The translations under genes were made by a program, and so were the position numbers. Below the pieces are notes generated by a model, which ran no database searches, was not told the DNA's origin, and saw only the letters and a list, made by a program, of their open reading frames with translations. From Escherichia coli (GTDB taxonomy: Bacteria > Pseudomonadota > Gammaproteobacteria > Enterobacterales > Enterobacteriaceae), in NCBI RefSeq assembly GCF_016026235.1, contig NZ_CP065613.1: DNA of 64,000 bases; one strand, written 5' to 3'. Shown piece by piece: positions 21,007 to 23,533 of this stretch. Positions within the stretch are counted from its first letter, which is position 1; each line of letters begins with the position of its first letter.

Positions 21007-21320
21007 ATTGTTCAGTCTCTTATTATCTTTATATGCTTGATATACTTAAGGTTGTAATAAGCAAAAGAGGACTGAACTGTAAAATATAGGCGTTATACTT
21101 TACAGCAACAGTACGCCGCTAACGCAATTGCTACCTCTGGCATAACAAGTATATCGGGTAAGGGTTTCTGTTCTGCACACGCAGGCGCAGAGTATCGTTA
21201 AGATGTCCATATTGTTGTTATAGGCCCGCTAGTAATGCGCTACGGGTATTTAATATTGTTAAACCCTGATAATCGCTCCGGTTATTTCCGGGATAAATGT
21301 ACTACCGCAGTTACTATCAT

Positions 21321-21355
21321 AGCCCCGACAATAAAACTTGCCGGGGCTTTTTTTG
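21321..21355 (+). terminator. plus-strand-oriented Rho-independent terminator in the glcB-glcA intergenic region
   Basis: agccccg / 13-nt loop / cggggct followed by ttttttt on the plus strand; no annotated plus-strand gene upstream. Confidence 0.4.
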
Positions 21356-21361
21356 ACGCTA

Positions 21362-23533
21362 TTAATGACTTTCTTTTTCGCGTAAACGCCAGGCGTGTAA
21401 TAACGGTTCGGTATAGCCGTTTGGCTGTTTCACGCCGAGGAAGATCAAATCGCTGGCAGCTTTAAAAGCACACGAGTTAGCGAAATTCCCCGCCATCGGA
21501 CGATAAGCCGGATCGTCAGCGTTTTGCTGATCAACCACTTTCGCCATATTCTCCAGCGACGCCTGCACCTGTTCTTTGGTCAGAATACCGTGACGTAACC
21601 AGTTGGCGATATGCTGGCTGGAGATACGCAGCGTTGCGCGGTCTTCCATCAGCGCCACATTGTGAATATCCGGCACTTTTGAACAACCAATCCCCTGCTC
21701 CACCCAGCGCACCACGTACCCCAGAATCCCCTGCACGTTGTTATCCAGCTCTTGTTGGATCTCTTCCACCGACCAGTTAGCATTTTCAGCCACCGGAATA
21801 GTCAGCAGATCGTCCAGCAGCGGTTCAAATTCAGCATTGAACTCGGTCTGGGCAATGTTGGCTTGCACGCTCTGTACGTTGGTTTGGTGGTAGTGCAGCG
21901 CATGGAGCGTAGCAGCGGTTGGTGACGGAACCCAGGCTGTGTTTGCCCCTGCACGCAGTTGGTCGCCCTTCTGGCTGTACATGTCTGCCATCAGGTCCGG
22001 CATTGCCCACATGCCTTTACCGATTTGCGCTTTACCGCGCAGCCCACAGAACAGGCCGGAAAGCACGTTATTACGTTCGTAGGCTTTGATCCAAGGCGTC
22101 GATTTCATCTGGTTTTTACGCAGCATCGGGCCAGCTTCCATCACCGAATGCATTTCATCGCCGGTACGGTCGAGGAAACCGGTATTGATGAACGCCACGC
22201 GGTTGCGCGCCTGAGCGATACAGCTACGCAAGTTCAGCGAGGTCCGACGTTCTTCATCCATAATGCCCATTTTCAGGGTATTCGGTGCCATACCGAGCAT
22301 TGTCTCAATGCGGGTAAACAGTTTGTTGGCGAACGCCACTTCCTGCGGACCGTGCATTTTCGGTTTCACAATATAGACGCTGCCAGTGCGCGAGTTTTTC
22401 TGCACTTTTAAATCATAGAGGGCAATCGCGCCAGTCATGACGCCATCAAGAATGCCTTCCGGGATTTCATTGCCTTCGCTGTCCCAAATCACAGGAATGG
22501 TCATCAAATGACCCACGTTGCGGATAAACAGCAACGAGCGTCCGTGCAGAGAAATTTCAGAGCCATCGGCGGCGGTGTACTGACGATCATCATTCAGTTT
22601 ACGCACGATTTGCCGACCGTTTTTCTCCATTTTCTCTTGCAGAGTCCCCTGCATCAGGCCCAGCAGATTGCGGTACAGCAGGATTTTATCTTCCGCATCA
22701 ACCGCCGCGACCGAATCTTCGCAGTCGAGAATGGTACTGATGGCCGCTTCGACGATAACATCGTTGATGTGCGCCGGATCGTCTTTGCCAATCCGCCCGT
22801 TGGCATCAATTTGCAGTTCAATATGCAGGCCGTTATTTTTCAGCAAAATGCAGGTCAGCGCAGCGGCATCGCCACGGTAACCGACAAACTGCGCCGGGGT
22901 ACGTAACGTGGTTTCTTTACCATTTTTCAACTGGATGCGTAATTGTTTATCGACCACCTTAAACGCCACCACATCCTGATAGCTGCCGTTTTCCAGCGGT
23001 AGAGATTCATCGAGGAAACGCCGAACCCAGGCGATAACCTGCTCACCGCGTTGCGGATCGTAGCCGCTGACCATCGCCCCTTCCTGCGGGATGATGTCGC
23101 TGCCGTATAACGCATCGTACAGTGAGCCCCAGCGAGCGTTCGCCGCGTTCAGCGCGTAGCGGGCGTTCATTGCCGGAACCACCAGCTGTGGCCCCGCCTG
23201 GCTGGTGATTTCGCTGTCGATGCCCGTGGTTTCCACCGTCACGCGCTCCGGTTGCGGCACCAGGTAGCCCAGTTCACGCAGGAAAGATTTATAGGCCGCT
23301 TTATCTTTTACCGGCCCCGGATTACTGCGATGCCACTCATCAAGCGCCGCCTGAATGCGATCGCGCTCTGCCAGCAACTGACGATTTTCTGGTGCCAGAT
23401 CGTGAACGATCTCATCAACATTGTGCCAGAATGCGGCAGCGTCCAGTTCCACGCCCGGCAAAACTTCTTCATCCACAAAACGTTTAAAATTGGCGTCAAT
23501 GCGTAAACGGCCCTGGGTTATGGTTTGACTCAT
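21362..23533 (-). CDS. glcB: malate synthase G
   Basis: 723 aa matching recalled GlcB (N-terminus [27 protein letters not shown]). Confidence 0.9.

Follow-up and report, generated by a model that had tools for sequence, protein, structure and literature searches.

A strand-asymmetric hairpin in the glcB-glcA spacer of Escherichia coli coincides with the 3' end of glcB mRNA and adjoins the catalogued C0719 RNA

Why does the spacer between two genes of one operon carry what looks like a terminator facing the opposite way? The window analyzed here, a 64,000-nucleotide stretch of Escherichia coli DNA, includes the glc operon's distal end, encoded on the minus strand. Open reading frames and the RefSeq annotation of near-identical DNA place glcA, encoding the glycolate/lactate permease, at 19324-21006 and glcB, encoding malate synthase G, at 21362-23533, both on the minus strand. 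The glcB frame closes with tandem stops (TAA TAG), and in the sequence its stop codon occupies 21362-21364 of the minus strand. The intercistronic region of the glcDEFGBA operon between them (21007-21361, minus strand) is exactly 355 nt long, as the initial annotation had stated. Diversity, homologous spacers and folding, described below, characterize it as conserved and structured. glcA is taken as co-transcribed with the upstream genes, giving the operon glcDEFGBA (PMC10272880). No RNA gene is annotated in the spacer in NC_000913.3 or in PGAP-annotated genomes. Throughout, sense denotes the glc mRNA (minus strand) and antisense the plus strand.

The feature in question lies at the glcB end of the spacer. 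A stem-loop, AGCCCCGACAATAAAACTTGCCGGGGCT, folds on both strands at 21321-21348, with arms at 21321-21331 and 21338-21348 and a loop at 21332-21337. On the plus strand, this GC-rich stem-loop runs directly into a T7 tract (21348-21354, plus strand), the predicted U tail of a plus-strand intrinsic terminator, and the first T of the tract pairs with A21321. Read in the glc mRNA, the same tract is an A run 5' of the hairpin, and the hairpin ends 14 nt from the glcB stop. Tract length is polymorphic in E. coli: the window and many strains carry T7, and K-12 MG1655 (L100 622-627) and some others carry T6. The plus-strand fold has an energy of -15.2 kcal/mol and consists of 7 bp, an A.C mismatch and 3 bp (z = -4.3; 1 of 200 shuffles was as good). 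The minus-strand fold, with 11 continuous base pairs including one G.U, reaches -21.1 kcal/mol (z = -5.9). The two strands also differ in what follows the stem. The T-tail score (d'Aubenton-Carafa-style) is 4.75 on the plus strand vs 1.6 on the minus strand, where the tail is UAUGAUAGU and lacks a U tract. Sequence, folding and shuffles thus agree with the initial annotation that a strong hairpin followed by seven T residues points against the glc operon, and its remark that the minus orientation is devoid of a U tract was borne out.

Such sites are uncommon in this DNA. A custom scan for hairpins of -12 kcal/mol or lower abutting at least six T residues returned this hairpin as the sole plus-strand site in the 64-kb window; counting both strands, the window holds 3 such sites vs approximately 0.3 per shuffled window. 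A generic promoter and terminator scan flagged nothing in the spacer, because the internal mismatch of the hairpin pushes its loop past the loop limit of that scan. Two simple identities for the hairpin were considered and rejected. It is not a REP element, since the spacer including the hairpin is single-copy, found in a median of 1 and a maximum of 2 places per genome. A weak match to Spot 42 (RF00021) at 21249-21355 on the plus strand (19.8 bits, E 0.59) is sub-threshold, and the similarity lies in the terminator hairpin alone.

A plus-strand RNA at this locus is already known: Rfam and EcoCyc have listed C0719 for two decades, and the spacer does not hold a new kind of system. The Rfam model of the C0719 candidate small RNA (sRNA), RF00117, matches 21085-21306 on the plus strand over its full length (222/222) with 295.2 bits and E = 2.9e-78, compared with a gathering threshold of 50 bits. 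The match sits between yghK (glcA) and glcB, as the family description requires. The model ends 15 nt away from the hairpin, leaving the terminator (21321-21354) outside. As C0719 is annotated to within 15 nt of the terminator, the word "orphan" used for it in the initial annotation is inaccurate; it adjoins a catalogued RNA. The terminator is the likely 3' end of the C0719 RNA.

C0719 reportedly entered the record as a candidate sRNA of E. coli and Shigella from the arrays of Tjaden et al. in 2002. The literature treats it as a predicted sRNA, and its EcoCyc identifier, G0-8912, is quoted in Adams et al. 2021 (PMC7815308). One RNA-seq study called C0719 up-regulated at transition phase, with counts of approximately 0.3-3 units compared with 50-100 for an ordinary sRNA (PMC4676190). 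Support for a C0719 transcript consists of the 2002 arrays and very low RNA-seq counts, and is thin. The curated Term-seq tables of Adams et al. 2021 (LB 0.4, LB 2.0 and M63) list no plus-strand 3' end for the T tract, at NC_000913.3 3,121,6xx, although low expression could hide one. The Cappable-seq (PMC4782308) and SMRT-Cappable-seq (PMC6131387) tables, possibly incomplete, have no entry for a transcription start site in the spacer.

The promoter search gave a similar picture. Scans with sigma-70 weight matrices across the window and all lineages returned only background-level plus-strand candidates; no promoter stood out, the initial annotation having proposed a search near 21050-21250. A weak candidate extended -10 element, TGaTATACT, lies at 21038-21046 on the plus strand with a background-level weight-matrix score and would start transcription near 21053; its counterparts are TGgTATGCT in Raoultella and TATACC in locus L097. 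A second weak candidate, CTGAAC-16-TATACT, lies at 21072-21099 on the plus strand with a start near 21106 and scores 7.4 in E. coli and 9.4 in locus L092.

These data bear on whether C0719 is a bona fide trans-acting sRNA of the Hfq type, with the hairpin and U7 as terminator and Hfq-binding module and the minus-strand end of the glcB mRNA, described below, as a by-product. The RF00117 match and the canonical terminator with its U7 tail would fit such an RNA, as would the transition-phase up-regulation and the lowered retrohoming of a group II intron upon a mariner insertion at C0719 (PMC3636086). The transposon phenotype, however, could be polar or unrelated, and neither biofilm nor motility nor fimbriae changed when C0719 was overexpressed (PMC4606813). 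C0719 is also absent from the Hfq CLASH supplementary tables examined, one of them partial, and the very low expression and the lack of a plus-strand Term-seq end count against this explanation as well. Furthermore, the locus always travels with glcB and glcA and is lost together with them, as expected for a cis element. We therefore consider a trans-acting role for C0719 quite improbable.

The direct experimental signal at the hairpin is solely on the minus strand, and it is the end of the glcB messenger. Term-seq recorded one 3' end in the whole spacer, on the minus strand, with a mean of 47,630 reads (Adams et al. 2021, PMC7815308). This end, at NC_000913.3 position 3121590 on the LB OD 2.0 sheet, is listed there both as the primary glcB 3' end and as lying antisense to C0719. 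Mapping, checked on the MG1655 sequence, places it at ...GGGGCUAUGA^, that is, at window position 21317 on the minus strand. The in-vivo 3' end of the glcB-terminated mRNA thus lies 4-5 nt past a -21.1 kcal/mol stem that begins 14 nt after the glcB stop, the arrangement of a 3'-end-forming stem. The initial annotation had offered an mRNA-stabilizing stem-loop as its simpler alternative. The single-nucleotide Term-seq end at LB OD 2.0 backs the stem-loop as an mRNA end, and the stem may also stabilize the messenger. This end could arise by Rho termination with exonuclease trimming, by RNase E cleavage or by leaky intrinsic termination.

To judge how strongly the spacer is maintained, we turned to other genomes. 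In 4,543 of the 5,426 complete E. coli genomes, a single copy of the spacer is present with 95-100% identity; genomes without it have neither glcB nor glcA, and 882 of the 5,426 lack both genes. C0719 has been described as lost in phylogroup E and in several Shigella lineages (PMC3318445). Among nine diverse E. coli, diversity (pi) in the spacer is 0.014 vs 0.070-0.077 at fourfold degenerate sites of glcB and glcA, approximately 5-fold lower. In the same nine genomes, the sslE-glcA spacer (18857-19323) has a pi of 0.040, approximately 3 times that of the glcB-glcA spacer. This low diversity indicates that the spacer is under purifying selection.

Several strains carry rearranged or damaged glc loci. 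In E. coli PEC408 (L002, NZ_CM168008.1), an insertion of the IS5-like ISKpn26 with a deletion took glcA and most of the spacer. The last 47 bp of the spacer, which is the hairpin region adjoining glcB, are retained, and a type II Zorya defense system lies just beyond this piece. The annotations of at least two strains of E. coli, E7 and EcPF5 (L083 and L088), list glcG, upstream of glcB, as a pseudogene interrupted by an internal stop. In E. albertii CP117620.1 (L091 6526-6789), glcA is down to an 87-aa fragment, and the spacer with the hairpin is still 94.5% identical.

Beyond E. coli, GlcB is sparsely distributed. Within Enterobacterales, a protein search found GlcB orthologues only in E. 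coli, E. albertii (96%), Raoultella planticola (80%) and a lineage at 88% represented by two SRA assemblies (hereafter the 88% lineage); matches from Pseudomonas followed at approximately 68%. A contig scan with the GlcB C-terminus gave, among the matches listed, E. coli and proteins of Pseudomonadales and Burkholderiales at or below approximately 75% identity. The patchy presence of GlcB in Enterobacterales, together with its repeated absence, suggests acquisition of the locus followed by repeated loss. A metagenome scan with the conserved motif preceding glcA yielded two matches, both chance occurrences inside an unrelated ORF.

The cross-genus comparison comprises four independent lineages only, and all four share the same layout. 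The protein search and contig look-ups gave the gene order glcDEFGB, a spacer of 331-398 nt and glcA in each. Spacer identity to the window is 94.5% in E. albertii, 76-78% in the 88% lineage and 58% in Raoultella. A stem-loop directly follows glcB in all four, and each has the plus-strand arrangement of a GC-rich stem-loop running directly into a U tract. One stem pair changes between lineages: E. coli has G.U, the 88% lineage has U.G, and both E. albertii and Raoultella have G-C, so that pairing at this position is kept in sense RNA only. The E. albertii stem also contains an A.C mismatch in sense RNA that is a U.G pair in antisense RNA. Overall, the stability of the terminator stem by strand is mixed: the sense strand is favored in E. 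coli, the 88% lineage and Raoultella, and the antisense strand in E. albertii. The run of A5-7 located 5' of the stem in sense RNA is kept in the four lineages, while the loop and the bases toward the stop codon have diverged. Accordingly, T-tail scores across the four lineages are 3.8-5.1 in the antisense direction and 1.2-2.2 in the sense direction. It can be argued from this antisense T tail, conserved across genera, that stopping antisense transcription before glcB has been selected.

These comparisons bear on two points. Conservation, together with the Term-seq data, in effect refutes a chance inverted repeat or a REP-like remnant without function. Nothing specific speaks for such an origin beyond the silence of the generic terminator scan. 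The hairpin, however, is single-copy, rare against shuffles, conserved across genera with a compensatory change, and coincident with a mapped 3' end, which leaves chance a negligible probability. As for the small or antisense RNA that the initial annotation proposed, the RF00117 match (295 bits) and the terminator polarity conserved in four lineages make the idea sound, yet not new; what remains thin is the support for the transcript itself.

The rest of the spacer is structured as well, and we asked which strand carries the structure. Folding and lineage comparison identified a conserved hairpin C, CUGCGC...GUGCAG, at 21172-21191 on the minus strand. A second hairpin, D, is a 13-bp AU-rich stem at 21076-21106 on the minus strand that straddles the Rfam 5' end of C0719 (21085); its energy is -14 to -16.5 kcal/mol as sense RNA and -5 to -9.4 kcal/mol as antisense RNA. 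In every Escherichia and 88%-lineage sequence, both hairpins are clearly more stable as sense RNA, hairpin C being so in each of the lineages, and the U.G wobbles of the 88% lineage in hairpin D pair in sense RNA only. The 60 nt preceding the glcA AUG are conserved. Within this end of the spacer, folding predicted a helix on the minus strand (21013-21074) between CAGUC-CUCUU (21074-21065) and AAGAGACUG (21021-21013), which would cover the glcA Shine-Dalgarno sequence. For E. coli the prediction is strong, for the remaining lineages it varies, and a helix over the glcA Shine-Dalgarno is put forward as a hypothesis only.

A 36-aa ORF, MDILTILCACVC..., at 21100-21210 on the minus strand was considered as a gene and rejected. 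It lacks a Shine-Dalgarno sequence, a 2-nt deletion breaks its frame in the 88% lineage, and it shrinks to 12 codons in Raoultella. Its ATGGAC start is kept as far as Raoultella. As the conservation of this ORF coincides with hairpin C, it probably reflects RNA structure and not a peptide.

Whole-spacer statistics pointed the same way as hairpins C and D. The consensus folding energy is -50.7 kcal/mol for the sense strand vs -38.1 kcal/mol for the antisense strand. The column-shuffle z is -9.1 vs -6.3, and the single-sequence z is -4.0 vs -2.4, respectively. Pairs with compensatory changes number 8 on the sense strand, a count reached in 0 of 500 shuffles, vs 5 on the antisense strand (26 of 500). 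Structure on the sense strand is thus modestly favored, given four independent lineages and a Raoultella alignment that is uncertain mid-spacer.

One possible reading is that the C0719 locus is primarily a sense-strand cis-regulatory RNA, a proposal that we regard as tentative and lean against. The spacer would then be a conserved, structured glcA leader of 330-400 nt within the glc operon, shared by Escherichia, the 88% lineage and Raoultella, whose hairpins pair better in the mRNA than in C0719. The predicted helix could mask the glcA ribosome-binding site, and the glcB-proximal stem could uncouple glcB and glcA levels. The antisense terminator would merely keep spurious antisense transcription from glcB.

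The account that we favor, with somewhat better than even confidence, is a strand-asymmetric element, which is leaky and 3'-end-forming for the glcDEFGB mRNA and is a canonical terminator for antisense (C0719) transcription. In the operon direction, RNA polymerase would meet an 11-bp stem and, since no U tail follows it, would mostly read through to glcA. Transcripts stopped or cleaved in the long untranslated spacer would be trimmed back to the stem, giving a stable 3' end of the glcDEFGB mRNA. In the antisense direction, the GC-rich stem with U6-7 would stop C0719 transcription coming from the AT-rich spacer before it enters glcB. Direct observation covers the hairpin with its two tails, its conservation and the 3' end on the minus strand; we infer that this end results from trimming or from leaky termination, and that transcription on the plus strand stops at the T tract.

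The same observations could be read as an element of the sense strand only: a barrier or stabilizer at the mRNA 3' end, or a weak terminator setting the glcB:glcA ratio, with the A run incidental and C0719 an array artifact or low-level noise devoid of function. The sole mapped 3' end is indeed on the minus strand, the stem is more stable as sense RNA in three of the four lineages, hairpins C and D favor the sense strand, and so does consensus folding. C0719 counts approximately 100-fold below those of typical sRNAs and reference annotations free of an RNA gene would also fit. However, an incidental A run would hardly be kept at A5-7 in four lineages amid a diverged loop and flanks, and the strong antisense tail would be left unexplained. 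The E. albertii stem, moreover, pairs better in antisense RNA. We consider the sense-only explanation rather unlikely.

As things stand, little changes for the annotation of this locus, and the refinements are modest. Any C0719 transcript probably ends in the terminator at 21350-21354, beyond the boundary drawn by Rfam. The 3' end of the glcB mRNA maps to the same stem. The intercistronic spacer as a whole is evolutionarily constrained and structured, and the one-way polarity of its terminator is conserved. The C0719 family of Rfam may represent a conserved glcA leader seen from its antisense strand. If the leader reading is true, this family would change strands, and the leader would define a new operon-internal control region for the glycolate/lactate permease.

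Comparison with known systems places the element among several familiar ones. RF00117 (C0719) is the closest, with the same locus and strand and a full-length match. The Rfam 5' end (21085) nevertheless falls within a conserved hairpin that is better paired in sense RNA, and homologous spacers exist beyond Escherichia and Shigella. GadY is a cis-antisense RNA encoded opposite the gadX-gadW intercistronic region, and C0719 resembles it as a small RNA gene lying antisense in the spacer of co-transcribed genes beside the 3' end of the upstream cistron. The likeness is one of position alone; pairing-directed processing, Hfq binding and robust expression are not part of it. Bidirectional intrinsic terminators between convergent transcripts, reportedly the subject of work by Ju, Li & Liu in 2019, likewise use one hairpin for converging transcripts, flanked by A residues on one side and T residues on the other. 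The glc hairpin differs in having a U tail in one direction only, an asymmetry kept in four lineages, and its sense direction must stay leaky for glcA to be expressed. The malE-malF REP is an intercistronic stabilizer hairpin, whereas the glc hairpin is single-copy and not a REP. In the operon direction, the glc hairpin is like the protective stem-loops at processed or trimmed mRNA ends described by Dar & Sorek 2018 (PMC6061677), with a stable stem after the upstream cistron, a 3' end a few nucleotides past it and no U tract.
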